The notes beneath the pieces were generated by a model that searched no databases, was not told the DNA's origin, and worked only from the letters and a program-made list of their open reading frames with translations. This document shows, piece by piece, positions 29,119-41,774 of a stretch of DNA of 64,000 nucleotides (positions are counted from its first letter, which is position 1; each line of letters begins with the position of its first letter). This DNA comes from Clostridia bacterium (lineage in GTDB: Bacteria; Bacillota; Clostridia; UBA1212; UBA1255). The position numbers were made by a program, and so were the translations under genes. The stretch covers positions 1,584 through 65,583 of the forward strand of contig JAFWQX010000066.1 of assembly GCA_017508875.1 (NCBI GenBank), given 5' to 3'.

Positions 29119-30630
29119 TCAATGTTCAACTCTGTAAAACTTTTGATACTTGCTCTTAGGTTTCTCCGGTATCGTCATCGCGAGTTTGCCCGCGACGACA
29201 AGCGGTCTCAGGTATTTTGTAACAACGTAATACGGCGTTTGGATGTTCAGCATTGAGGCGATCTCTTCCTTGCTTTTCGGCTCTGTGCAAAAAGTAAGTA
29301 TCCGTTCTTCGACGGTGACGGATGGACTGCCGGGAACGATCGACGTTTCCTTTTTTGAAAACAGCGTCGCCTTGAAAATGCCTCTGTAGTTTTCAAACAG
29401 CGGCTCGGGAAGCCCGGCTTTCCTCATTGCTTCACGAATCGTCGGAATACCGGAAAAACGGTTTTCGGTATCGATCATGACTTCGAGATTGCTTGCGATA
29501 AACGGGTTTCTTGTGTCTCCCGGGACTTTTCCGAGATCGTTGATCGTCAGGCGTCCGTAAAGCCCGCCAGGATTTTCTACCACAAGTCTGTCGCGGAAAA
29601 GGATCACTCTGACAGGGGAGCCCTCGGTATGAACGCTGTAATCTCGGTGGATCAGAGCGTTCAGGATCAATTCGCGGACGGCGACGAGCGGATATTCCGG
29701 CTTATCGGTCCTGCGACCGTTTTCATCCACAACAACGGCGGTTTTTATGTTTCGCCTTACAAAGTTCATTGCGCCTTCCAGCATCTCCGGTATCGTTCCG
29801 TCAAAGCGCTTGTTGTCGATAAAGCGTTCTCCGGACGCTCCGAGGTCGCCAATCTCATATCCGTCTACGACCATAGCGGTGATACCGAGCTGGGGGAAAA
29901 ACGCTTGGGGATAATCGCCGACAAGCATCAGCCCGGCGACGGTAGGCTTGCCGTTATCCGTGAGCCCTTGAAGTTTCATGATTCTGAGATCATCCTGATT
30001 TGCGAGCTGCGGCTTTTCCGTTTTTAGCTTTGCAAAATACAAACTCAGTTTTTCGCGGCTGAGATCATCCGTTTCCGCGCGGTCCACGATTCGCAGCTCG
30101 TCGCGGATCTTCTTTTTATAGACTTCGTAACTGTAGATTTCATATTCGGTCATCGGCATATCCGCGTCGCCTACGCGAACATAAGAGCCGCGGATCCTGC
30201 CGGCTGGCTTATAGAAGCAAGGTTTATTTTCGGGCTCGCACTCCGGTATTTCGGCGCTTACGACCACTTTTCCTTCGTATTCGGCAACCGTAAAAAACGG
30301 GCGAACGACCGGTTCCATCTGCTCCGCGGCGTTTTTGACCTGGACCTGCAGATCCTGCGCGTCATATACGCCCGTAACCTCATACCCAGCCTTTTCATCA
30401 ACGCCGAAAATGATCGTACCGCCGTCATTCTGGTTGGAAAAGCTTGACAGAGTATCGTAAAGCTTTTTAGACGTGCCGCCCAACGCCTTTTTGACTTCCA
30501 CATACTGTTTTTCGCATTTCTGACGCTTCAGAGCGTCTATCAGTTCTATCAGATCTTTCTCTGTCAATGCTGTTGCTCCTTTCGTTATCACAATCTTATT
30601 ATAGTGTTTTTCAAAACGATTGTCAAACAT
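29119..30630 (-). CDS. Schlafen-like AlbA_2 DNA-binding domain + HATPase_c_4 (RecG-C-terminal-like) putative regulator
   Basis: N-terminal AlbA_2-like block (IVITKGATALTEKDLIELID..., FGVDEKAGYEVTGV), C-terminal NALIHRDYS GHKL-like motif. Confidence 0.7.
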   Translation of the reverse strand: MFDNRFEKHYNKIVITKGATALTEKDLIELIDALKRQKCEKQYVEVKKALGGTSKKLYDTLSSFSNQNDGGTIIFGVDEKAGYEVTGVYDAQDLQVQVKNAAEQMEPVVRPFFTVAEYEGKVVVSAEIPECEPENKPCFYKPAGRIRGSYVRVGDADMPMTEYEIYSYEVYKKKIRDELRIVDRAETDDLSREKLSLYFAKLKTEKPQLANQDDLRIMKLQGLTDNGKPTVAGLMLVGDYPQAFFPQLGITAMVVDGYEIGDLGASGERFIDNKRFDGTIPEMLEGAMNFVRRNIKTAVVVDENGRRTDKPEYPLVAVRELILNALIHRDYSVHTEGSPVRVILFRDRLVVENPGGLYGRLTINDLGKVPGDTRNPFIASNLEVMIDTENRFSGIPTIREAMRKAGLPEPLFENYRGIFKATLFSKKETSIVPGSPSVTVEERILTFCTEPKSKEEIASMLNIQTPYYVVTKYLRPLVVAGKLAMTIPEKPKSKYQKFYRVEH

Positions 30631-31920: not shown

Positions 31921-33069
31921 TTAGCCTTTCACGAGCACGGTCTTCACGTTTTTGCCCGCGAGCGCATCGCGGAAAGCACGGTTCGTCTCGGAGACCGGAT
32001 ACGTTGTCGCCAGCGACCGGATAAGGGGCTGAAGTTCCGCGTGCTCTTTCAGGAAGGCGAGGTAGTCGTGAACGTCGATCATCGAATACTGCGAAGAACC
32101 GATGATCCGGAGCGCTTTAAACGTGATCAGCTCGGGCCGGATCTCAACGCCGCCCGCGTTACTGTATTGACCGGGAACGAGATAAACGCCGCGGTTTCGC
32201 AGAACGTTGATGCCGAGCGGGACAGCGGAAGGTGAGCCTGACGCCTCAAAGCACAGATCGACGCCGAGACCGCCGTTTTCCGCCTGGAGTTTTTTCTCAA
32301 CCGCGTCCGTGCCTTCCGCCTGAAGGCTCAGCACTTCGTCAGCGCCGAGTTCGAGCGCCAGTCTGCGCTTTTCAGGATTATCCCTGCCGGTCACAGCATA
32401 CAGTTTTTTTACGCCGATCGCGTGCAGATATACGATCGCGAAGCAGCCGACGGGGCCGAGCCCCTGAACGACGGCAACGGTTTCTTTTCCGGGGACAAAA
32501 CCCGCTCTTTGGCCCAGTCTGAATGCGTGTATTGCCGTGGGCCCGGGGCAGGCGAAGACCGCAGCTGCGACGGGGTCAATTCCTTCCGGTATCCGTACGA
32601 GGTTCGCAAGAGGAGTGAAATTGACCTCCGCGTACCCGCCGAACAGGTAAGGCGAAGTGTTTATGCTGCCCTCGTTCGTGACTTTCATATTCACGCAGTT
32701 CGCGTCGTCGCCGCTGAGGCAGAGGGGACATTCACCGCACGGCACCGCAATGTCGGCAATGACGTTGTCGCCGGGCTTCAGCCCGTATTTCGCCGCTTCC
32801 TCCGGATCGCAGTCATTAAGTCTTCCTACAAATTCATGTCCTACTATCGAATCCGCCGGTGCAAACAGCGTTCCTCTTTGAAAATGCAGGTCCGTGCCGC
32901 ATACGCCGCTCGCGATCAGCTCTGATCTTCCGTAGCCTTTCGGCGCCTTTACGACCTCGAATTCCCTGATCGCGAATGGCCTTCCGGGACCCTGAAACAC
33001 CGCGCCCTTTGCGGAAGGCGCTTTGATCTTATTGCTCCCGATGCAGTTGTTTTCAATAATTTCAGTCAT
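31921..33069 (-). CDS. Zinc-dependent alcohol dehydrogenase (MDR family)
   Basis: GVCGTDLH and GHEFVG catalytic-zinc motifs, structural-zinc Cys cluster CGECPLC, Rossmann GLGPVG; start set at MTEII with RBS AAAGGA. Confidence 0.85.
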   Translation of the reverse strand: MTEIIENNCIGSNKIKAPSAKGAVFQGPGRPFAIREFEVVKAPKGYGRSELIASGVCGTDLHFQRGTLFAPADSIVGHEFVGRLNDCDPEEAAKYGLKPGDNVIADIAVPCGECPLCLSGDDANCVNMKVTNEGSINTSPYLFGGYAEVNFTPLANLVRIPEGIDPVAAAVFACPGPTAIHAFRLGQRAGFVPGKETVAVVQGLGPVGCFAIVYLHAIGVKKLYAVTGRDNPEKRRLALELGADEVLSLQAEGTDAVEKKLQAENGGLGVDLCFEASGSPSAVPLGINVLRNRGVYLVPGQYSNAGGVEIRPELITFKALRIIGSSQYSMIDVHDYLAFLKEHAELQPLIRSLATTYPVSETNRAFRDALAGKNVKTVLVKG

Positions 33070-33101
33070 TTTAGCTAATCCTTTCTGGTACGAATAGTAA
33101 A

Positions 33102-33863
33102 TCACTCGACGGTACAATCGAAATATTGTCCGTAGATATTTTTTATGCGCGAAATTTCATCCGGGCCAGGCGGAGATGTCGATGCGTATGCGTATTCTTT
33201 CCCCATTGCCGCATATTTTGCACTTCCGAGCCGGTGAAAGGGGAGCAGATCCACTGACTTCACGCCCGCGCCAAGTAATTGACCGCACATGATTTCCGCG
33301 TCGTTTTCTGACAAATTAAACCCCGGTACGAGGGGTACACGCACGCGCACGTTCTCGCCGCGCCCCGTAAGTTTGCTGATATTGTTAAGTACCGCTTCCC
33401 GGTCTCCTCCGACGATTTTTGCGTACTTTTCGCTGTCCGCAGTTTTATAATCGATAAGGAACACCTGAATGCGGCCGAGCAGCGGCACGAACCGCTCCCA
33501 CGGAACGCACGCGGCTGTGTCTATGACCGTATTAACGCGTTCTTCAGCGAGCAGATCTATAAGCCCGGAGAACTCTTCGCTCTGAAGCATCGGCTCGCCT
33601 CCGCTTAAAGTGAGACCGCCGTCGTCCCCGTAAAATTCTTTATCTTCCAGCACTTCCTCCGCTATTCTCTCGATGGGCAAAAATCTCCCGTGAACGATAA
33701 CTTTCCCTGCCTGCGCGTATACCAGGCGCTCGGGCAATGCCGAAACCGTCTCGGGGTTATGGCACCACGGACAATGCAGGTTACAGCCCTTCAGGAATAC
33801 CGTCGTGCGTATCCCCGGACCGTCACCAGTGCTGAAGTGCTGTATTTCCGATACGTTTAACAT
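33102..33863 (-). CDS. Glycyl-radical enzyme activating protein (radical SAM)
   Basis: CNLHCPWCHNPE (CxxxCxxC), DGPGIRTTVFLKGC N-terminal block; start ATG 33863 or TTG 33869. Confidence 0.85.
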   Translation of the reverse strand: MLNVSEIQHFSTGDGPGIRTTVFLKGCNLHCPWCHNPETVSALPERLVYAQAGKVIVHGRFLPIERIAEEVLEDKEFYGDDGGLTLSGGEPMLQSEEFSGLIDLLAEERVNTVIDTAACVPWERFVPLLGRIQVFLIDYKTADSEKYAKIVGGDREAVLNNISKLTGRGENVRVRVPLVPGFNLSENDAEIMCGQLLGAGVKSVDLLPFHRLGSAKYAAMGKEYAYASTSPPGPDEISRIKNIYGQYFDCTVE

Positions 33864-33895
33864 GTTCAAAATTTCTGGCGCCCTGGCGGCAATTA

Positions 33896-36121
33896 TCAGA
33901 GATCGTCGTGCTGTGTGCGGCTAAGTATGTCGAGCTGGACCTCTTTCGCGAGCGTAACGTAGAGGGCTGAGAAACCGGAGACGCGGACAACGAGGGAACG
34001 GTAGTTTTCAGGATGTTCCATCGCGTCGATCAGTATCTTGCGCGAAGTCGAATTGATCTGGACTTCCTGGCCGCCGCGGCTGAAATACACGCGGATCAGC
34101 TTAAGCAGCTTTTCACGCTTCCCGTCCGCGAAGGCGGAAGGCGCAAATTTCTGATTAACCACCGTGCCGCACGCGCAATTCGTGTAATCGGGTTTAGAGA
34201 CGCTCAAGAGCGTTGACGTCACGCCGCGTGTATCGCATCCGTACGTGGGGGAGGCGGCGTCTGAAAGCGGCTTCCCGGCGAGTCTTCCGTCCGGCGTCGC
34301 GCCCAGAGCCATACCGGCGTTGATATTAGAAGTATTGGCCGCCATAGCGGTATAAAAACCGCCGCCGTCGTACGTGTGATACTTTCTGAACTCATCGGAC
34401 AAATGCTGCGTATACCAGACGGCGTAGCGGTCAACGAAATCGTCGTTGTTCCCGTATTTCGGCGCCGCGAGGGCAAGTGCGTGAAGTTCACCGTGACCTT
34501 CGTAATTATCGCGCATTGCCTGCACGATCTCCGAAAGCTTAGCGGCGCGGTCAACGAATACTATCTTTTCTATTGCCGCGAGCGAGTCGCTGACGGTCCC
34601 GACGCCCATAAGCGCCGCGCCGTGTATAGACGGATATTTCGAGCCGCCGTTGTTTATATCCTTGCCGCGCTCGATGCAGAACTGGGCGAAAAGCGACAGG
34701 AAGGAGCTGTTATAGTTTTCCGGATCAGGCACCGACATATAGCGGTTAGCGGTATCGACGTAATCTTTTACGGCCTTATCGAGCAGCAACGTATAGATCT
34801 TCATAAAATCTTCCATTGACTGAATGTCGTCAGGGCTGCTGAGTCTTCCGCCCTGTGCATCGCTTTTCACGCCGCATTCCGCAGCCGCACTCTGCAGCGT
34901 CTCACGGTCCAGAAGCATTTTTTCAAGGTAATTTATCGGGTCGAAACGCCCGTCGTTCCACGGCGGCTGCTGGCCGGGCAGGAAGTTTTCGATGCATCCC
35001 ACCATGCAGTAATTGCGCACGTCTTTAAGGTCGTATCCGTACCGCAGGAGGGCGGGAATATTCGCCATATCGTTCATAAGCGCGGGGTAGCCGAGACCGG
35101 TCCCGATGACTTTAAGGCATTCGTCCAGAAATTCGTCGGGCGTGTCAGGGGCAATGCGTGCAGAAAGGTTAGGACCGGGCATGTTGACGTCGCGTACGGC
35201 GCGAAGCACACAGAAGCTGAGCTCATTGACCGCGTTGATTCCGTCGGCGTCAACGCCCCCGATGCAGATATTTACGACGTCGTCTCCACCGAGAATCCTC
35301 TTTTCACAAATCTTCGCGAACGTGTTGGCAACGAGCAGTTCGGCTTCTTCGAACGTGATATTGCCGGCGTCAATATCTTTTTTGAACAGCGGGTACAGAT
35401 ACTGGTCGATCCTTCCGAGCGCCATGGCGTAGCGGCCCTCGTACAGATAGCAGCTGTGGATCATCCATACGAGCTGGAGCCCCTGCGCGAACGTCTGAGG
35501 CGCACCTTCCAAAAGCGCCTCGCAGTTGCTTTTTATGAAATCAAGCCGTGCAACTCCCGCAGGGTCGTTATCGCATTCCGCGGCAAGTTTTTTTGCAAGC
35601 TCCCCGTGTGCCCGGATACGCTCCGAGAGCCCCTTAAGCGCCAGCTCCATACTAAGCAGAAAGTCAACAACTTCCGGATCGTCAGAATGCTGCGCTTTCG
35701 ACGCTTCTATTTTGCGTTTCAGGCCTGGAATTCCGACGGTAAGAACGGTCTCGAAATCCGAAGCAAAATGGTCGCTATGCGTAGAAAAATTTCGCTCGGG
35801 ATACATCGCGTTAAGCCTGGCGGACTCAGCCTTCTGCTCGGGCGTAAGGTCAATAAACAGCGGCCTTATGCTTCCGACGATCAGGTCGTTTTTATATATT
35901 TGAGGCCGCGGCAACGTAAACAGCGAATAGATACCGGCCGCCCGTCTTCCTGACGGCGTGTCGCGGACAATATCTTCATCTGCGCCTTTTTCTTTTCTTT
36001 CAAAATAGCCGTATCCGACCGAGCGGAACCAGTCAGGTCTGTACTCTCCTGAAGCAGGGGAAAGCATCTCCTGCTTTAGCGTCTCTAAACTGTTGTTCCC
36101 GGCAAATTCACTGATTTTCAT
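33896..36121 (-). CDS. Glycyl radical enzyme, PFL2/glycerol-dehydratase-like family (substrate unknown)
   Basis: ~740 aa; C-terminal glycine-radical motif VRVSGFSALY; active-site Cys loop region; start taken at ATG 36121 with AGGAG 10 nt upstream (GTG 36130 alternative). Confidence 0.85.
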   Translation of the reverse strand: MKISEFAGNNSLETLKQEMLSPASGEYRPDWFRSVGYGYFERKEKGADEDIVRDTPSGRRAAGIYSLFTLPRPQIYKNDLIVGSIRPLFIDLTPEQKAESARLNAMYPERNFSTHSDHFASDFETVLTVGIPGLKRKIEASKAQHSDDPEVVDFLLSMELALKGLSERIRAHGELAKKLAAECDNDPAGVARLDFIKSNCEALLEGAPQTFAQGLQLVWMIHSCYLYEGRYAMALGRIDQYLYPLFKKDIDAGNITFEEAELLVANTFAKICEKRILGGDDVVNICIGGVDADGINAVNELSFCVLRAVRDVNMPGPNLSARIAPDTPDEFLDECLKVIGTGLGYPALMNDMANIPALLRYGYDLKDVRNYCMVGCIENFLPGQQPPWNDGRFDPINYLEKMLLDRETLQSAAAECGVKSDAQGGRLSSPDDIQSMEDFMKIYTLLLDKAVKDYVDTANRYMSVPDPENYNSSFLSLFAQFCIERGKDINNGGSKYPSIHGAALMGVGTVSDSLAAIEKIVFVDRAAKLSEIVQAMRDNYEGHGELHALALAAPKYGNNDDFVDRYAVWYTQHLSDEFRKYHTYDGGGFYTAMAANTSNINAGMALGATPDGRLAGKPLSDAASPTYGCDTRGVTSTLLSVSKPDYTNCACGTVVNQKFAPSAFADGKREKLLKLIRVYFSRGGQEVQINSTSRKILIDAMEHPENYRSLVVRVSGFSALYVTLAKEVQLDILSRTQHDDL

Positions 36122-36233
36122 CGGATCCACACTCCTGTACCGGTAAAAGTTTCAAAAACTGAAACTATACCCGCTGATCTTCGGAAAGTATATAATAAAA
36201 AAAGATAAAATGCAAACAAAAACTCTTTTTCCG

Positions 36234-36690
36234 CCGGGCGGCGGATAACTTTGGCACACAAAGTGGTAAAATCGGGTTTTGTGTGCCAGGCGGGCGCTGT
36301 CTCTTAGCCGGGCAGCAGCTAACTTTGGCACACAAAGTGGTAAAATCGGGTTTTGTGTGCCAGCAGGGCGCTGTCTCTCAGCCGGGCAGCAGCTAACTTT
36401 GGCACACAAAGTGGAAAAATCGAGATTTGTGTGCCAGCCCGGCTCTATCTTGAGAACATCAGAAGGCGAAAAATGAACAATTCGTGGCACACAAATCGCC
36501 GAAATTGAGGATCGTGTGCCACTCCTCCTAAATCTCCGGGAAAAAATGAGAAATTCGTGGCACACAAATCGCCGAAATCGAGGATCGTGTGCCACTCCTC
36601 CTAAATCTCCGGGGGAAAATGAGAAATTCGTGGCACACAAATCGACGAAATCGAGGATCGTGTGCCACTTCTCCTCAACCTCAGCAGGAA
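36234..36690. repeat. Array of six ~65-73-bp tandem units, each containing a long palindrome (type A x3: TGGCACACAAA-N15-TTTGTGTGCCA; type B x3: GTGGCACAC-N21-GTGTGCCAC)
   Basis: Palindromes at 36252-36288, 36326-36362, 36399-36436, 36485-36521, 36558-36594, 36630-36666; spacers between them nearly identical. Confidence 0.8.
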
Positions 36691-36761
36691 AATGAACAAT
36701 CCGTAGCGCGAGAAGATGTCAATACAATCATATGCAAATTAAGGCATAGATATACTCGCTG

Positions 36762-36820: not shown

Positions 36821-36849
36821 TTGATTTTTCCTCCTGAAATCTTTATAAT
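36821..36849 (+). promoter_or_regulatory. Promoter TTGATT -17- TATAAT for partner-switching operon
   Basis: TTGATT 36821-26, TATAAT 36844-49. Confidence 0.5.
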
Positions 36850-37217: not shown

Positions 37218-39356
37218 ATGCCCGAAAAAAGTGTAAGAGAGATGAATAAATACGAGAGGCTGCGTTATTCGCTCGCTTCCCGTACGTTCCATACTGCGAT
37301 AGGCGGAGCTGCGATCCTGGGGATCGTTGCCCTGGTCATCGGCCTCGGATGGTACGCTTATTCATACTCGAGCCAGCTTATCAAAGGAGCGTTCGGCGTT
37401 TCGAAGAACGCCCAGATGATAATATCGAAAATCATCGATCCGACCGATCTGGGGCGCGACGTGATGGATCTGTACAGATTGGTTCCTGAAGAAACCCGCG
37501 GTGACGGGGATGACGCGGAATACCTTTCACTGTACGACTCGTTTAAAACGCGGGAGGATTACGTACAGATATTGTCGATCCTTAAAGATTTTCGCGATTC
37601 CAGCACTGTCAGCGACGTGTACTACGCTATGTACGACGAAGAAACGGGTATGCTGGTATATTTTGCGGATCCGGACGAAGACGAAGACACTGTATGCCCT
37701 ACGGGCTTTTTTGAGACCGCCACGAAGAAAGAACTCAATACGTTCCTTCGCTGGAACGGCAAAAAAACGCCTTATTATATAGAAAAGACCGAAAGATACG
37801 GCTGGATCTGCACGACCGGAATAAGTGTAAAGGATCAGGACGGAAGCATTGCCGGATTCATACTCGCGGACGTAACGCTAAAAGAAGTGGGAAGCGGAAT
37901 GCTCAGGTTCCTGCTCCAGTACGGAATATCGATGTTCGTACTCATAAATCTTGTCGCGATATTCATGACGCGCCACATGAAGAAAAAGCTGGTAAAGCCC
38001 ATAAACGAGATCGCTGAGGCTGCCGAAGCGTATCTGAAAGATAAGAAAGACGGCGCAAGGGTGACGGATCATTTCTCGAAACTCAATATAAATACGGGTG
38101 ACGAAGTTGAGAATCTTGCCCTTATTATGGCAGATATGGAAACCGACCTGGCGGATTACGAGGACGATCTTACCAGAGTTGCCGCGGAAAAAGAGCGCAT
38201 CAGCATCGAACTTTCGCTCGCGACAAGGATCCAGGCGGATATGCTGCCGAATATTTTCCCCGCATTTCCTGAAAGAAGCGAGTTTGACGTGTTTGCGTCA
38301 ATGAAACCCGCGAAAGAAGTTGGCGGCGATTTTTACGACTTCTTCCTTATTGACGAAGACCACCTCGGACTCGTAATGGCTGACGTATCGGGGAAAGGTG
38401 TCCCCGCGGCGCTGTTTATGATGGTATCGAAGATACTTGTCCAGAACATAGCGATGTCAGGTAAAAGCCCGGCGGAGGTCATTAAGACTATCAACGCTCA
38501 GATCTGCGCCAATAACCGCGAAGAAATGTTCGTGACGGTGTGGTTCGGAGTGCTGGACGTTCGCGACGGCACGCTTAGGGCGGTCAATGCGGGCCATGAA
38601 TATCCGATGCTTAAGAAGCCCGGCGGCGACTTCGAACTGGTAAAAGACACACACGGATTCGTTGTGGGCGGATTCGCATCTTCAAAATACAAAGAATATG
38701 AACTGAAGCTTGAACCCGGTGCGAAGCTGTTTTTGTATACCGACGGAGTTACGGAAGCGTCTAACGAAGATTCCGTGCTTTTCGGAACGGGGCGAACGCT
38801 CGAAGTGCTGAATAAAAATAAAAATGAGGAGCCGGAGAAGGTCGTTCAGAGTGTAAACAATGCGATCTCTGAGTTTTGCGGAAGCGCTCCGCAGTTCGAT
38901 GATATTACGCTTATGTGTCTCGAGTATTTCGGGAAAGGGAACACGGAAATGAAGGAAATTACTGTCGAAGCCAAAATTGAAAATATCCCTGAAGTCACTG
39001 ATTTTGTCAACGGCGAACTTGAGAAACTTGAGTGTTCACTTAAGGCGCAGATGCAGATAGACGTGGCGATAGACGAAATGTTCGGCAACATTGCCCGCTA
39101 CGCATACGGCGGGGGCGCGGGAAACGCGACAGTTCAGATTCGCGCAAAGAAAGAACCCAAAGCGGTGGAACTGACGTTTATTGACGGCGGCACCCCGTAC
39201 GATCCTCTGAAGAAAGACGATCCGGATATCTCTCTCGGAGCTGACGAGAGGGAAGTCGGAGGGCTCGGGATCTTCCTGGTCAAAAAAACGATGGATGATA
39301 TGAAATACGAATATAAAGACGGGCAGAACAGACTTACGGTAACCAAATTGCTGTGA
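37218..39356 (+). CDS. Membrane sensor - PP2C (SpoIIE/RsbU-type) phosphatase - HATPase_c (RsbW/SpoIIAB-type kinase) fusion protein
   Basis: Two TM segments flanking ~180-aa extracytoplasmic domain; PP2C motifs GGDFYDFF, DVSGKGVPAALFM, TDGVTEA; C-terminal GHKL region VELTFIDGG...GGLGIFLVKK. Confidence 0.8.
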   Translation: MPEKSVREMNKYERLRYSLASRTFHTAIGGAAILGIVALVIGLGWYAYSYSSQLIKGAFGVSKNAQMIISKIIDPTDLGRDVMDLYRLVPEETRGDGDDAEYLSLYDSFKTREDYVQILSILKDFRDSSTVSDVYYAMYDEETGMLVYFADPDEDEDTVCPTGFFETATKKELNTFLRWNGKKTPYYIEKTERYGWICTTGISVKDQDGSIAGFILADVTLKEVGSGMLRFLLQYGISMFVLINLVAIFMTRHMKKKLVKPINEIAEAAEAYLKDKKDGARVTDHFSKLNINTGDEVENLALIMADMETDLADYEDDLTRVAAEKERISIELSLATRIQADMLPNIFPAFPERSEFDVFASMKPAKEVGGDFYDFFLIDEDHLGLVMADVSGKGVPAALFMMVSKILVQNIAMSGKSPAEVIKTINAQICANNREEMFVTVWFGVLDVRDGTLRAVNAGHEYPMLKKPGGDFELVKDTHGFVVGGFASSKYKEYELKLEPGAKLFLYTDGVTEASNEDSVLFGTGRTLEVLNKNKNEEPEKVVQSVNNAISEFCGSAPQFDDITLMCLEYFGKGNTEMKEITVEAKIENIPEVTDFVNGELEKLECSLKAQMQIDVAIDEMFGNIARYAYGGGAGNATVQIRAKKEPKAVELTFIDGGTPYDPLKKDDPDISLGADEREVGGLGIFLVKKTMDDMKYEYKDGQNRLTVTKLL

Positions 39357-39397: not shown

Positions 39398-40570
39398 ATG
39401 AAATATAAAGAAAACGGCAGTGAATTGACAATAAATTTTGAGGGGCACATTGATTCCGCAAACGCGAAGGAGATAGAAGACGAGATCAGCGCCATAAAGG
39501 CAAAGGCACACCCGGAAAAACTTGTCATTGACTGCGAGAATCTTCAGTATATATCAAGCGCCGGACTCAGGATAGTTCTGCGCCTGATGAAAGAGATCAA
39601 ACCTATTTCTATCGTCAACGTCTCTTCCGAGGTTTACGAGATATTCGATATGACCGGTTTTACGGAGATGGCGGAGGTGCACAAAGCGTACAGAAAAGTG
39701 TCCGTCGACGGCTGCGAAATTATCGGAAAAGGTGCGAACGGAACCGTGTACAGAATTGACCGCGACACGATCGTAAAGGTCTACGTGAACCCGGATTCGC
39801 TGCCGGAAATCCAGCGCGAACGCGAGCTTGCCCGAAAAGCATTCGTGCTCGGTATCCCGACCGCTATACCGTACGACGTTGTCCGCGTAGGCGAAGGCTA
39901 CGGTTCGGTTTTTGAACTGCTCAGCGCAAAAAGCCTCGCTGAGATCCTCTCCAAAGATCCCGGCCAGTTCGACAGCGTACTTAAATACAGCGTGGATCTG
40001 CTCAAAACGATCCATTCGAAAGAACTTCCGAAAGGCGAGATGCCTGACTGCAAAGCCACGGTGCTGGGATGGGTGGAATTTCTGAAAGACTACCTTCCGG
40101 AAGCGCAATATAAAAAACTCAAGGCGCTCGTGGAGGCTGTCCCCGAGGATAACCATATTATGCACGGCGATTATCATATGAAAAACGTCATGCTGCAGGA
40201 CGGAGAAGCGCTGCTGATAGATATGGACACGCTGTGCCTCGGCCACCCGGTGTTCGAATTCGGCTCGATTTTTAATTCGTATATCGGATATTCTGAACTC
40301 GATACGGAAAACGTCAGAAAATTCCTCGGCATTCCTTTTGAAACCGCGAAACAGATATGGGACAGGACGGTGCGTATGTATTTCGGAACCGACGACGAGG
40401 CATTCATTCAGGCGGTAAAGGACAAGGCGAAGGTCGTAGGTTATACGAGAGTTATGCGCCGCGCGATTCGCCGCGGGTCAATGGACGATCCCGCCACGCT
40501 TGCTGTCGTCAATAACTGCAGAAAGCATTTTGACGAACTGCTTGCGCGCCTTGACACACTTGAATTCTGA
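39398..40570 (+). CDS. STAS domain fused to aminoglycoside-phosphotransferase/choline-kinase-like (protein-kinase fold) domain
   Basis: N-terminal STAS (LQYISSAGLRIVLRL); kinase-like Gly loop GKGANGTVY, Lys in VKVY, catalytic HGDYHMKNVML, IDMDT metal-binding loop. Confidence 0.7.
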   Translation: MKYKENGSELTINFEGHIDSANAKEIEDEISAIKAKAHPEKLVIDCENLQYISSAGLRIVLRLMKEIKPISIVNVSSEVYEIFDMTGFTEMAEVHKAYRKVSVDGCEIIGKGANGTVYRIDRDTIVKVYVNPDSLPEIQRERELARKAFVLGIPTAIPYDVVRVGEGYGSVFELLSAKSLAEILSKDPGQFDSVLKYSVDLLKTIHSKELPKGEMPDCKATVLGWVEFLKDYLPEAQYKKLKALVEAVPEDNHIMHGDYHMKNVMLQDGEALLIDMDTLCLGHPVFEFGSIFNSYIGYSELDTENVRKFLGIPFETAKQIWDRTVRMYFGTDDEAFIQAVKDKAKVVGYTRVMRRAIRRGSMDDPATLAVVNNCRKHFDELLARLDTLEF

Positions 40571-40583
40571 GAGGGGCGCCGCC

Positions 40584-41774
40584 ATGAAGATATACGTGCG
40601 AAAAAAGAAGCCGAAGCTTTACGGCCTGCTGATATTCTCGATAGTGTTTGTGATCGCCGTCGCGGTCCTTTATGCGATCTCGCAAAGCACGAGCTTTAAT
40701 GCGCTGCCTTACATAACGGTATCGATGCCGCTGTATTTTGCCGCAGTGCTTGTTATACTTGTGATATCGCTCAAAAGGCAGATCGAGTACAATCCTTATT
40801 CGTACAATACGATCTATTATTTCGGCTTTTCGCTGTTCGTATTGTCCGTGCTCGTCACCCATATTGCCGCGGCGATCAGATATTTCATGAACACCGGGGA
40901 ATACGGATTCCGCGATACGGCCAGAATCATACTCTGGTCTGCGCGGCAATACATGATCGTAACGTTTCCGCTGCTCGCTGTTTTCTCGATAGGCCTTCTG
41001 GTCTCGAATATTGTCCTAATTAAGAAAGAGGGGAAGAGCCTCGCCAATACTCTGGGCATTCTGCTCGCCGTAGCACTGATGGCGGGAGAGGGAGTGCTTA
41101 TCTGGCTCGGAAGCATTGCGTCGGGTCCTTTCGGTATCGCGATCAATCTTTTATGCGCCATTTTTGTTTACGCGGAATGTATGCTGTTCGGGGCGATTTT
41201 CGCTGACATTCTGGTGGCAACGCACGTTCCGGCGTATGACAAGGATTATATTCTGATATTGGGCTGCAAGGTAGCGAAAAACGGCGAACCGATGCCGATA
41301 CTTCAAAAACGTATTGACCGCGCCATCGCTTTTTATGACGAGCAGGTGAGCAGGACGGGGAAAGCTCCCGTATTCATTCCGTCCGGCGGAAAAGGGGCCG
41401 ATGAGCCGTTGTCCGAAGCGGAATGCATGCGCAATTACCTGATCGCCAAAGGGTTTACCGATGAGCAGATAATAATGGAAGACGAATCGAAAAATACCAT
41501 ACAGAACATGCGTTTTTCCTTTAAAAAAGTTCCCGAAGAGGCGAAATGCGCCTTTTCAACTTCCGGATATCACGTTTTCAGAAGCGGCATAGCAGCTAAC
41601 AGGGCGCAGAAATTCAAGGCGGAAGGCGTAGGCGCTCCGTCCAGATGGTATTTCTGGCCGAACGCTTCGGTGAGAGAATTCATCGGACTGCTTACGGGCC
41701 ACAGGGGAAAGCAGCTGCTCGTGCTGTTCGGGCTGATCGCGGCGTACCTGCTGCTGAGCTTTCTGGCCGGATGA
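40584..41774 (+). CDS. Polytopic membrane protein with C-terminal DUF218 (YdcF/SanA/ElyC-like) domain
   Basis: 6 predicted TM helices then ILGCKV...PILQKRIDRAIAFY...FIPSGGKG...ECMRNYL (DUF218 pattern). Confidence 0.6.
   Translation: MKIYVRKKKPKLYGLLIFSIVFVIAVAVLYAISQSTSFNALPYITVSMPLYFAAVLVILVISLKRQIEYNPYSYNTIYYFGFSLFVLSVLVTHIAAAIRYFMNTGEYGFRDTARIILWSARQYMIVTFPLLAVFSIGLLVSNIVLIKKEGKSLANTLGILLAVALMAGEGVLIWLGSIASGPFGIAINLLCAIFVYAECMLFGAIFADILVATHVPAYDKDYILILGCKVAKNGEPMPILQKRIDRAIAFYDEQVSRTGKAPVFIPSGGKGADEPLSEAECMRNYLIAKGFTDEQIIMEDESKNTIQNMRFSFKKVPEEAKCAFSTSGYHVFRSGIAANRAQKFKAEGVGAPSRWYFWPNASVREFIGLLTGHRGKQLLVLFGLIAAYLLLSFLAG

Follow-up and report, generated by a model that had tools for sequence, protein, structure and literature searches.

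The stretch of DNA considered here, referred to below as the window, comprises 64,000 nucleotides (nt) of the genome of a Clostridia bacterium (GenBank assembly GCA_017508875.1, contig JAFWQX010000066.1, positions 1,584 to 65,583 of the forward strand), and our subject is a gene within it whose product joins an N-terminal STAS domain to a C-terminal kinase domain of the APH/ChoK fold, a fusion that we will call STAS-APH. The gene belongs to a row of four same-strand genes with gaps of 13–41 nt, which encode, in order, a stand-alone (solo) STAS protein, a membrane protein in which transmembrane (TM) segments are followed by a PP2C phosphatase domain and a GHKL kinase domain (TM-PP2C-GHKL), STAS-APH itself, and a DUF218 protein; among the first three of these genes the gaps are 27–41 nt (Table 1). 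The partner-switching module assembled in this way is complete except for a sigma factor, no gene for which is found in the operon or within ~10 kb of it in the Pfam-annotated context of the window. From comparisons of the sequences involved, we propose with moderate confidence a serine phosphorelay of a partner-switching-like kind in which STAS-APH acts as the effector, so that the output would be an enzyme, not a sigma factor.

STAS-APH is a genuine fusion, and both its domain calls and its fold are secure. Its open reading frame (ORF) opens with an ATG 9 nt 3' of an AGGAG sequence and closes with a TGA stop at 40568–40570, and a public contig encoding an identical protein carries its own gene call for the same 390 residues. 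This agreement, together with the recurrence of the architecture in the best database matches and in nearly all of the 150 cluster representatives discussed below, rules out an artefact of gene calling or frameshifting. A reading of this DNA from its letters alone (the sequence-only reading) had proposed the fusion of a STAS domain to an APH-fold enzyme and had quoted a series of motifs in its favor; Pfam searches (PF01740 and PF01636) confirm both domains, and every one of the quoted motifs is found in the protein. The fused STAS domain is of the SpoIIAA/RsbV type by both sequence and fold, and the protein scores 62.8 bits against TIGR00377, the NCBIfam model of the anti-sigma-antagonist superfamily, above the cut-off of 53.45. 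The conserved serine context that the same reading had pointed out is borne out as well, with Ser54 (S54), the second serine of YISSAGL, standing opposite the phospho-acceptor S58, at the start of helix 2, in a HMMER alignment to Bacillus subtilis SpoIIAA. The kinase domain has a bilobal kinase fold, with a PF01636 match above the cut-off, and it contains K127, the helix-C glutamate E141, H256, D258, N263, and D275. Its best structural neighbors are all small-molecule kinases, and no protein-kinase match by sequence is better than an E-value of ~0.3. The top kinase model in NCBIfam is TIGR02172, against which the protein scores 100.8 bits, and because this lies below the cut-off of 228.2 bits, we regard the window protein as a diverged sister group of TIGR02172 that has acquired a STAS domain, rather than as a member of that family.

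The selective constraints on the two halves of the protein were gauged by aligning it with 150 representatives of 50%-identity clusters, which are 34–61% identical to it. S54 is kept in 148 of the 149 representatives aligned at that position, and the flanking G56 and R58 are each kept in 148; in the kinase domain, K127 is retained in 149, E141 in 140, H256 in 147, D258 in 148, N263 in 146, and D275 in 148. Switch site and active site alike are under strong selection, and since S54 is conserved in the manner of the catalytic residues, it probably serves as a genuine phospho-site rather than a decoy. The junction between the STAS and kinase domains (residues 85–109) is better conserved than the STAS core, with a mean column identity of 0.60 vs 0.47, which argues for a fixed inter-domain coupling rather than a floppy linker. 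The kinase half had been taken by the sequence-only reading to be of an active type, and this assignment stands: the catalytic Asp and Asn are present, the residues named above are kept in 140–149 of the 150, and a pseudokinase is accordingly ruled out. The domain is apparently competent for catalysis and falls within the small-molecule (APH/ChoK) type.

The genes that precede STAS-APH encode the other parts of the module. In the membrane protein, two hydrophobic segments (TM1, residues 23–50, and TM2, residues 228–251) enclose an extracytoplasmic region of ~175 residues, the match to the SpoIIE-type PP2C profile reaches 176 bits and covers profile positions 1–191 of 192, and the GHKL domain can be aligned with RsbW of B. 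subtilis (6m36_A), its ATP-binding motifs E..N, D.G, and GGLG being intact. The solo STAS protein scores 75.4 bits against TIGR00377 (cut-off 53.45); it shares 37% identity with the fused STAS domain and has an identical YISSAGLR site. The promoter-like site upstream of the solo STAS gene likely marks the start of the operon, because the downstream genes lie only 13–41 nt apart; no structured RNA or riboswitch was found in the operon region among Rfam matches at E ≤ 0.1.

Table 1. Features of the STAS-APH operon, in coordinates of the window
Feature	Position	Strand	Basis or remark
Promoter-like site, TTGATT-17-TATAAT	36821..36849	+	Consensus match; not enriched over shuffles
Stand-alone STAS protein, 98 residues	36894..37190	+	PF01740, E 7e-16
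Membrane sensor, 712 residues, PP2C fused to RsbW-like GHKL serine kinase	37218..39356	+	Pfam; hydrophobic segments
PP2C (SpoIIE-type) domain of sensor, residues 379–570	38352..38927	+	PF07228, E 9.7e-52
GHKL (HATPase_c_2, RsbW/SpoIIAB-like) domain of sensor, residues 584–710	38967..39347	+	PF13581, E 4.2e-19
STAS-APH-fold kinase fusion gene, 390 residues	39398..40570	+	ORF, Pfam, NCBIfam
STAS domain, residues 4–95	39407..39682	+	PF01740, E 8.8e-16
Predicted phospho-acceptor Ser54 codon	39557-39559	+	Within fused STAS domain
APH/ChoK-fold kinase domain, residues 107–390	39716..40567	+	PF01636 match to residues 107–296, E 4.1e-16
Gly-rich loop of kinase domain	39725-39751	+	
K127 (beta-3 Lys) of kinase domain	39776-39778	+	
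Catalytic loop HGDYHMKN	40163-40186	+	Kinase domain
Metal-binding IDMD	40217-40228	+	Kinase domain
Multi-pass membrane protein, C-terminal DUF218	40584..41774	+	PF02698, E 4e-25; 13 nt 3' of STAS-APH gene

The fusion is far from peculiar to this genome. A word-indexed search with STAS-APH returned at least 8000 candidates, all at E ≤ 1e-5, and both domains are present in 119 of the 120 best matches, almost all of which are 388–395 residues long; the exception (P0021, 330 residues) has the APH domain only. When 1.84 billion cluster representatives were searched exhaustively, 716 clusters emerged at E ≤ 1e-30, with both domains covered in nearly all of the top 150 representatives, and a collection with one genome per species contains at least 163 confirmed stretches that match. 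The best 80 of these, on which all synteny counts below are based, originate in Clostridia of the rumen and gut (Oscillospiraceae, Acutalibacteraceae, Lachnospiraceae, Ruminococcaceae, and Christensenellaceae), as well as in Erysipelotrichaceae, Mogibacterium, Solobacterium, Collinsella tanakaei, and Sphaerochaetaceae/Spirochaetales; cultured carriers include Butyrivibrio sp. NC2002 and AC2005, Collinsella tanakaei, and Intestinimonas aquisgranensis. A tblastn search of 72,556 plasmids produced no match to STAS-APH, which discounts a plasmid-borne resistance gene, and none of six proteins of the system matches a PADLOC-DB 2.0 model, which discounts a known defence system. The names attached to the homologues at source are limited to "anti-sigma factor antagonist" or "phosphotransferase", and full-text literature searches found no paper on the fusion. 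The sequence-only reading had described the architecture as unlike characterised systems, which is right insofar as no paper on it was found and its names are generic, but needs correcting in two respects: the fusion is common, as the number of clusters attests, and the general idea of an effector governed by a phosphorylated STAS domain has precedents, to which we return at the end. STAS-APH is a large, conserved, and uncharacterised family.

The genomic surroundings of the family were surveyed by calling ORFs in the 80 stretches and searching them with the window proteins. At least one partner-switching part accompanies the fusion gene at 59 of the 80 loci, with a solo STAS protein at 45 (the motif Y[ITMV]SSAGLR being kept in 44 of these), a PP2C domain at 37, and a GHKL domain at 48; all three occur together at 26 loci, and at 25 the PP2C and GHKL domains are fused as in the window. 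Where at least 5 kb of sequence is available on both sides of the gene (n = 35), 29 loci have one or more of the parts and 27 have a GHKL kinase. The GHKL domain is in some cases part of the same polypeptide, either at the C-terminus (STAS-APH-GHKL, at six loci and in representatives P0126 and P0143) or at the N-terminus (GHKL-STAS-APH, in P0124), and we take these fusions as strong evidence that the RsbW-like kinase and STAS-APH act on each other. Sigma-like genes were seen near only two of the 80 loci, in a search that used one ECF-type seed and could have missed group-3 sigmas. Because of this scarcity, and because the window operon itself has no sigma gene, the NCBI label "anti-sigma factor antagonist" is probably wrong as a statement of function, and we have set aside a sigma-factor output.

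The remaining neighbors are PHP proteins (8 of the 80 loci), ABC ATPases (~13), SDF transporters (6), and MatE proteins (5), and the DUF218 protein, operonic by its spacing in the window, lies near the fusion gene at only 6 loci (L001, L011, L038, L057, L060, and L077). Each of these is too sporadic to be a core part, and the place of the DUF218 protein in the system is doubtful. A few rare extended architectures were also recorded, namely Na_H_Exchanger-STAS-APH (P0230), STAS-APH-PHP, STAS-APH-PolyA_pol head, and HD-CE-STAS-APH, the representatives concerned being P0230, P0138, P0174, and P0180.

The commonest coupled partner of the family, missed by the sequence-only reading, is an HD_4 (PF13328) protein of ~190 residues, whose gene, at 39 of the 80 loci, lies on the same strand and ends within a few bases of the STAS-APH start or overlaps it. 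This protein is closest to Lmo0812 (4yf1, E 5e-19), Rel/SpoT hydrolase domains, MESH1, and small alarmone hydrolases, also resembles RelA/SpoT family models, and has the Rel-type motifs G..RK, LHP.E, LHDxVED, and DKLxNxR invariant in 17–39 copies. The coupling becomes covalent in P0227, an HD_4-STAS-APH fusion, and at L056 an HD_4-STAS protein is followed by STAS-APH. A RelA/SpoT-type synthetase was found as a neighbor at one locus only (L075) and is ruled out as a standing member of the system. At that locus, the segment 1064–2285, just 5' of a cluster of PP2C-GHKL, STAS, HD_4, and STAS-APH genes, holds a second HD_4 gene as well as a RelA/SpoT-synthetase-like ORF (motif EIQIRSILQHAW).

The reciprocal search, in which metagenome contigs were queried with an alignment of the HD_4 proteins, returned loci of which ~33 represent close full-length relatives. 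At five of these the HD_4 gene is followed by STAS-APH, and at eight (L089, L093, L096, L097, L099, L101, L104, and L108) by an APH-fold kinase of ~280 residues that has no STAS domain; at L101 the hydrolase and the STAS-less kinase form a single ORF. Wherever the contig is long enough, the gene for the STAS-less kinase is followed by one for a (dCache-)PP2C-GHKL protein and one for a solo STAS protein. Five of these kinases were scanned against TIGR02172 and score 223–250 bits, three of them clearing the 228.2-bit cut-off. The presence of STAS-less TIGR02172 kinases in partner-switching operons means that this kinase clade is tied to partner switching with or without a fused STAS domain, and the STAS-less loci point to a conserved, uncharacterised module that is wider than the fusion family. 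The evolutionary unit is made up of HD_4 hydrolase, TIGR02172-type kinase, STAS, and PP2C-GHKL, with the STAS domain fused onto the kinase in the subfamily to which the window protein belongs.

In the phosphorelay that we propose, the membrane sensor, through its PP2C and GHKL domains, would determine whether Ser54 of the fused STAS domain and the matching serine of the solo STAS protein are phosphorylated, the GHKL domain phosphorylating both and the PP2C domain reversing this in response to a signal outside the membrane. The state of the fused STAS domain would in turn control the kinase, either allosterically through the conserved junction or by way of the GHKL domain holding the protein, and the kinase would act on a small molecule. 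The sequence-only reading, which had the enzyme gated directly by the phosphorylation state of its STAS domain, is in this respect partly supported; alternatively, the STAS domain would serve only for binding to the GHKL domain. Since the commonest coupled partner resembles a Rel/SpoT-type 3'-pyrophosphohydrolase, we favor as substrate a hydroxyl group of a nucleotide- or ribose-type compound, which the kinase would phosphorylate and the HD_4 enzyme would reverse or counteract. This last step is a guess and the weakest in the scheme, drawing as it does on gene neighborhood and on the rare fusions with HD_4, PHP, and PolyA_pol-head domains. A bolder version of it, which we put forward as speculation with a rather small chance of being right, is that the kinase and the translationally coupled HD_4 enzyme may be the maker and breaker of an undescribed phosphorylated nucleotide or of a modification of an RNA 3' end or ribose, such that gut and rumen anaerobes would produce an alarmone-like signal by means of an APH-fold kinase switched by a membrane-sensor-driven partner-switching phosphorelay.

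Several findings weigh against the proposed phosphorelay or parts of it. No partner-switching part is found within the available flanks at 21 of the 80 loci, many of which are on short contigs. No HD_4 gene is found within the 64-kb window or at the 94%-identical orthologous locus L001, so that the HD_4 link characterizes the family rather than the window locus. The substrates of APH-fold enzymes are very diverse, which weakens the inference of a nucleotide or ribose substrate, and a simple model of a gated enzyme has no need of a second STAS protein with an identical phospho-site. This last point leads directly to the main rival, a classical partner switch in which the APH domain takes the role of the sigma factor, being silenced by the GHKL domain and freed by the dephosphorylated solo STAS protein, with the fused STAS domain serving mainly as a tether or decoy. 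Such a mechanism would account for the two STAS proteins with one and the same site that the window encodes; it is compatible with the triple fusions STAS-APH-GHKL and GHKL-STAS-APH, and it has a ready counterpart in the unfused TIGR02172 modules, which consist of a single solo STAS protein, the kinase, and PP2C-GHKL in the manner of RsbV, RsbW, and their target. The conservation of the junction, however, fits a fixed coupling better than a loose tether, and that of S54, which equals that of the catalytic residues, suggests a functioning phospho-site where a decoy would be expected; we accordingly give this mechanism a real but distinctly minor share of the probability. The loci that have no partner-switching gene in their flanks can also be read as a sign that the fused STAS domain is a ligand-binding or docking module, as in SulP/SLC26 transporters or MlaB, and that the linkage to partner switching reflects the solo STAS protein only, a reading to which the Na+/H+ exchanger-STAS-APH protein P0230, recalling as it does the transporter-type STAS, lends some color. 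We consider it improbable, given that the fused domain belongs to the SpoIIAA/RsbV type, that its SSxGLR site is near-invariant and identical to that of the solo protein, and that a GHKL kinase has become fused to STAS-APH in several lineages.

Two further explanations concern the kinase domain itself. The APH domain might be the STAS kinase, autophosphorylating S54 or modifying the solo STAS protein, and so replace or supplement the RsbW-like kinase; loci such as L006, L042, L044, L054, and L059, which have STAS-APH and a solo STAS protein and no GHKL gene in the available sequence, could be understood in this way, and some APH-fold enzymes do act on peptides, as the structural matches to TvaE and LxmK illustrate. 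Against this stand the GHKL kinase at 27 of the 35 fully flanked loci, the small-molecule kinases that make up the best structural neighbors, the lack of any good sequence match to protein kinases, and the catalytic core shared with STAS-less TIGR02172 relatives, so that we hold such a role to be very improbable. The top fold matches in the PDB, to the APH(2''), APH(3'), and APH(4) enzymes, would at face value suggest an antibiotic-modifying phosphotransferase of the aminoglycoside or macrolide type with a regulatory STAS domain, yet the identity to these enzymes is only 7–18%, the NCBIfam match to APH(3') is weak, far under its cut-off, and confined to relatives of the protein, and a gene without plasmid matches that is conserved on the chromosomes of obligate anaerobes amid signaling genes makes a resistance function scarcely credible. 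The phosphorelay with STAS-APH as its enzymatic effector remains the explanation that we favor.

The wider surroundings of the operon contain several features that we record for their own sake. The 760-bp intergenic region between the solo STAS gene (+) and a divergent glycyl-radical-enzyme gene (−) carries two adjoining tandem arrays at 36233–36707, of 3 x 74 nt and 3 x 73 nt, respectively. Each array unit contains an imperfect palindrome, GGCACACAAA-N15-(T/C)GTGTGCC, giving six sites in all, none elsewhere in the window, and zero expected by chance. The arrays have no Rfam match and are missing from the 94%-identical orthologous locus L001, the intergenic region of which is ~500 bp shorter (an estimate from ORF coordinates); they may represent either an array of operators or a tandem expansion of recent date. 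The divergent cluster (31921–36130, −) encodes the glycyl-radical enzyme (PFL-like plus Gly_radical, 744 residues), a radical-SAM activase (33102–33869), and a zinc alcohol dehydrogenase (31921–33117). Farther out, at 29119–30630 (−), lies the gene for a protein with SLFN/AlbA_2 and HATPase_c_4 domains and a weak Fic-like_C match, which is included in a segment (24–32 kb) whose G+C content is 0.40–0.43, vs ~0.51 elsewhere; a second low-G+C stretch extends over 54–58 kb (0.34–0.40), and both may be acquired islands.

Partner-switching modules are among the commonest signaling devices of bacteria, and their output is mostly unclear once the sigma factor is missing. STAS-APH offers a concrete and very widespread candidate for such an output, in the form of an enzyme physically fused to the phospho-switch, in a family that spans hundreds of clusters from gut and rumen Clostridia, Erysipelotrichaceae, Collinsella, and spirochaetes. 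That a Rel/SpoT-type hydrolase is so often coupled to the kinase opens the prospect that nucleotide or alarmone chemistry may be under the control of these systems, by way of a kinase fold not linked to it before, and the existence of cultured carriers makes experiments feasible.

Among known systems, the module resembles the SpoIIAA/SpoIIAB/SpoIIE and RsbV/RsbW/RsbU systems of Bacillus in having a SpoIIAA-type STAS domain with the equivalent serine and a GHKL kinase and PP2C phosphatase encoded alongside; it differs from them in that the operon has no sigma factor, in that the kinase and phosphatase reside in one membrane protein, and in that there are two predicted STAS substrates, one of which bears an enzyme domain of 285 residues. 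The union of an RsbW-like kinase and a PP2C phosphatase in one polypeptide acting on a STAS protein is familiar from SypE of Vibrio fischeri and CrsR of Shewanella oneidensis, both of which are cytoplasmic proteins under the control of a receiver domain, with the domain order PP2C then GHKL in CrsR. Unlike these two proteins, the window sensor has two TM helices and an extracytoplasmic region. Its domains follow the order PP2C then GHKL, as in CrsR. The SypA/SypE system of V. fischeri is named in PMC10120452. On the side of the enzymes, STAS-APH has in common with the TIGR02172/APH-ChoK group (PF01636) the fold, the Gly-rich loop, the beta-3 Lys, and the motifs HGDxxxxN and IDxD, and bona fide TIGR02172 members share with it the HD_4 and partner-switching neighborhood. 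The HD_4 partner, with its RK, HP.E, HDxxED, and DKLxNxR motifs, is akin to Rel/SpoT and the small alarmone hydrolases, and an opposing, sometimes fused pair of enzymes recalls bifunctional RSH proteins, from which the present pair differs in having an APH-fold kinase as the proposed maker, in place of a synthetase of the RelA/SpoT nucleotidyltransferase fold.

The nearest precedents for the regulatory principle, both of recent date, are two effectors with STAS domains of their own. All4160 of Anabaena PCC 7120 is a STAS-glycosyltransferase, the phosphorylation state of which depends on HenR, a phosphatase of the SpoIIE type, and on the kinase Alr3423 (bioRxiv 10.64898/2026.04.08.717354). It shares with STAS-APH the N-terminal STAS domain on an enzyme, the anti-sigma-type kinase, and the SpoIIE-type phosphatase, and its output is an enzyme activity rather than transcription; it differs in its glycosyltransferase effector, in the TM segment between its domains, in its cyanobacterial host, and in having no HD_4 partner. 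CapS is a STAS repressor with a winged helix-turn-helix domain, the conserved serine of which is phosphorylated by the GHKL kinase CapK with a direct change in the behavior of the effector (PMC13373217), and here the differences lie in the DNA-binding effector, the mechanism of dimer dissociation, and the location in immune operons, the STAS-APH system having no PADLOC match. The window locus has the architecture of such All4160- and CapS-type modules, with a STAS domain on an output domain, a GHKL kinase and a SpoIIE-type phosphatase as neighbors, and no sigma factor. The idea of a STAS effector controlled by phosphorylation is thus already known; what is new here is an APH-fold kinase as the effector, the pair of STAS substrates, the membrane-sensor PP2C-GHKL protein, and the link to an HD_4 hydrolase that runs through the family.

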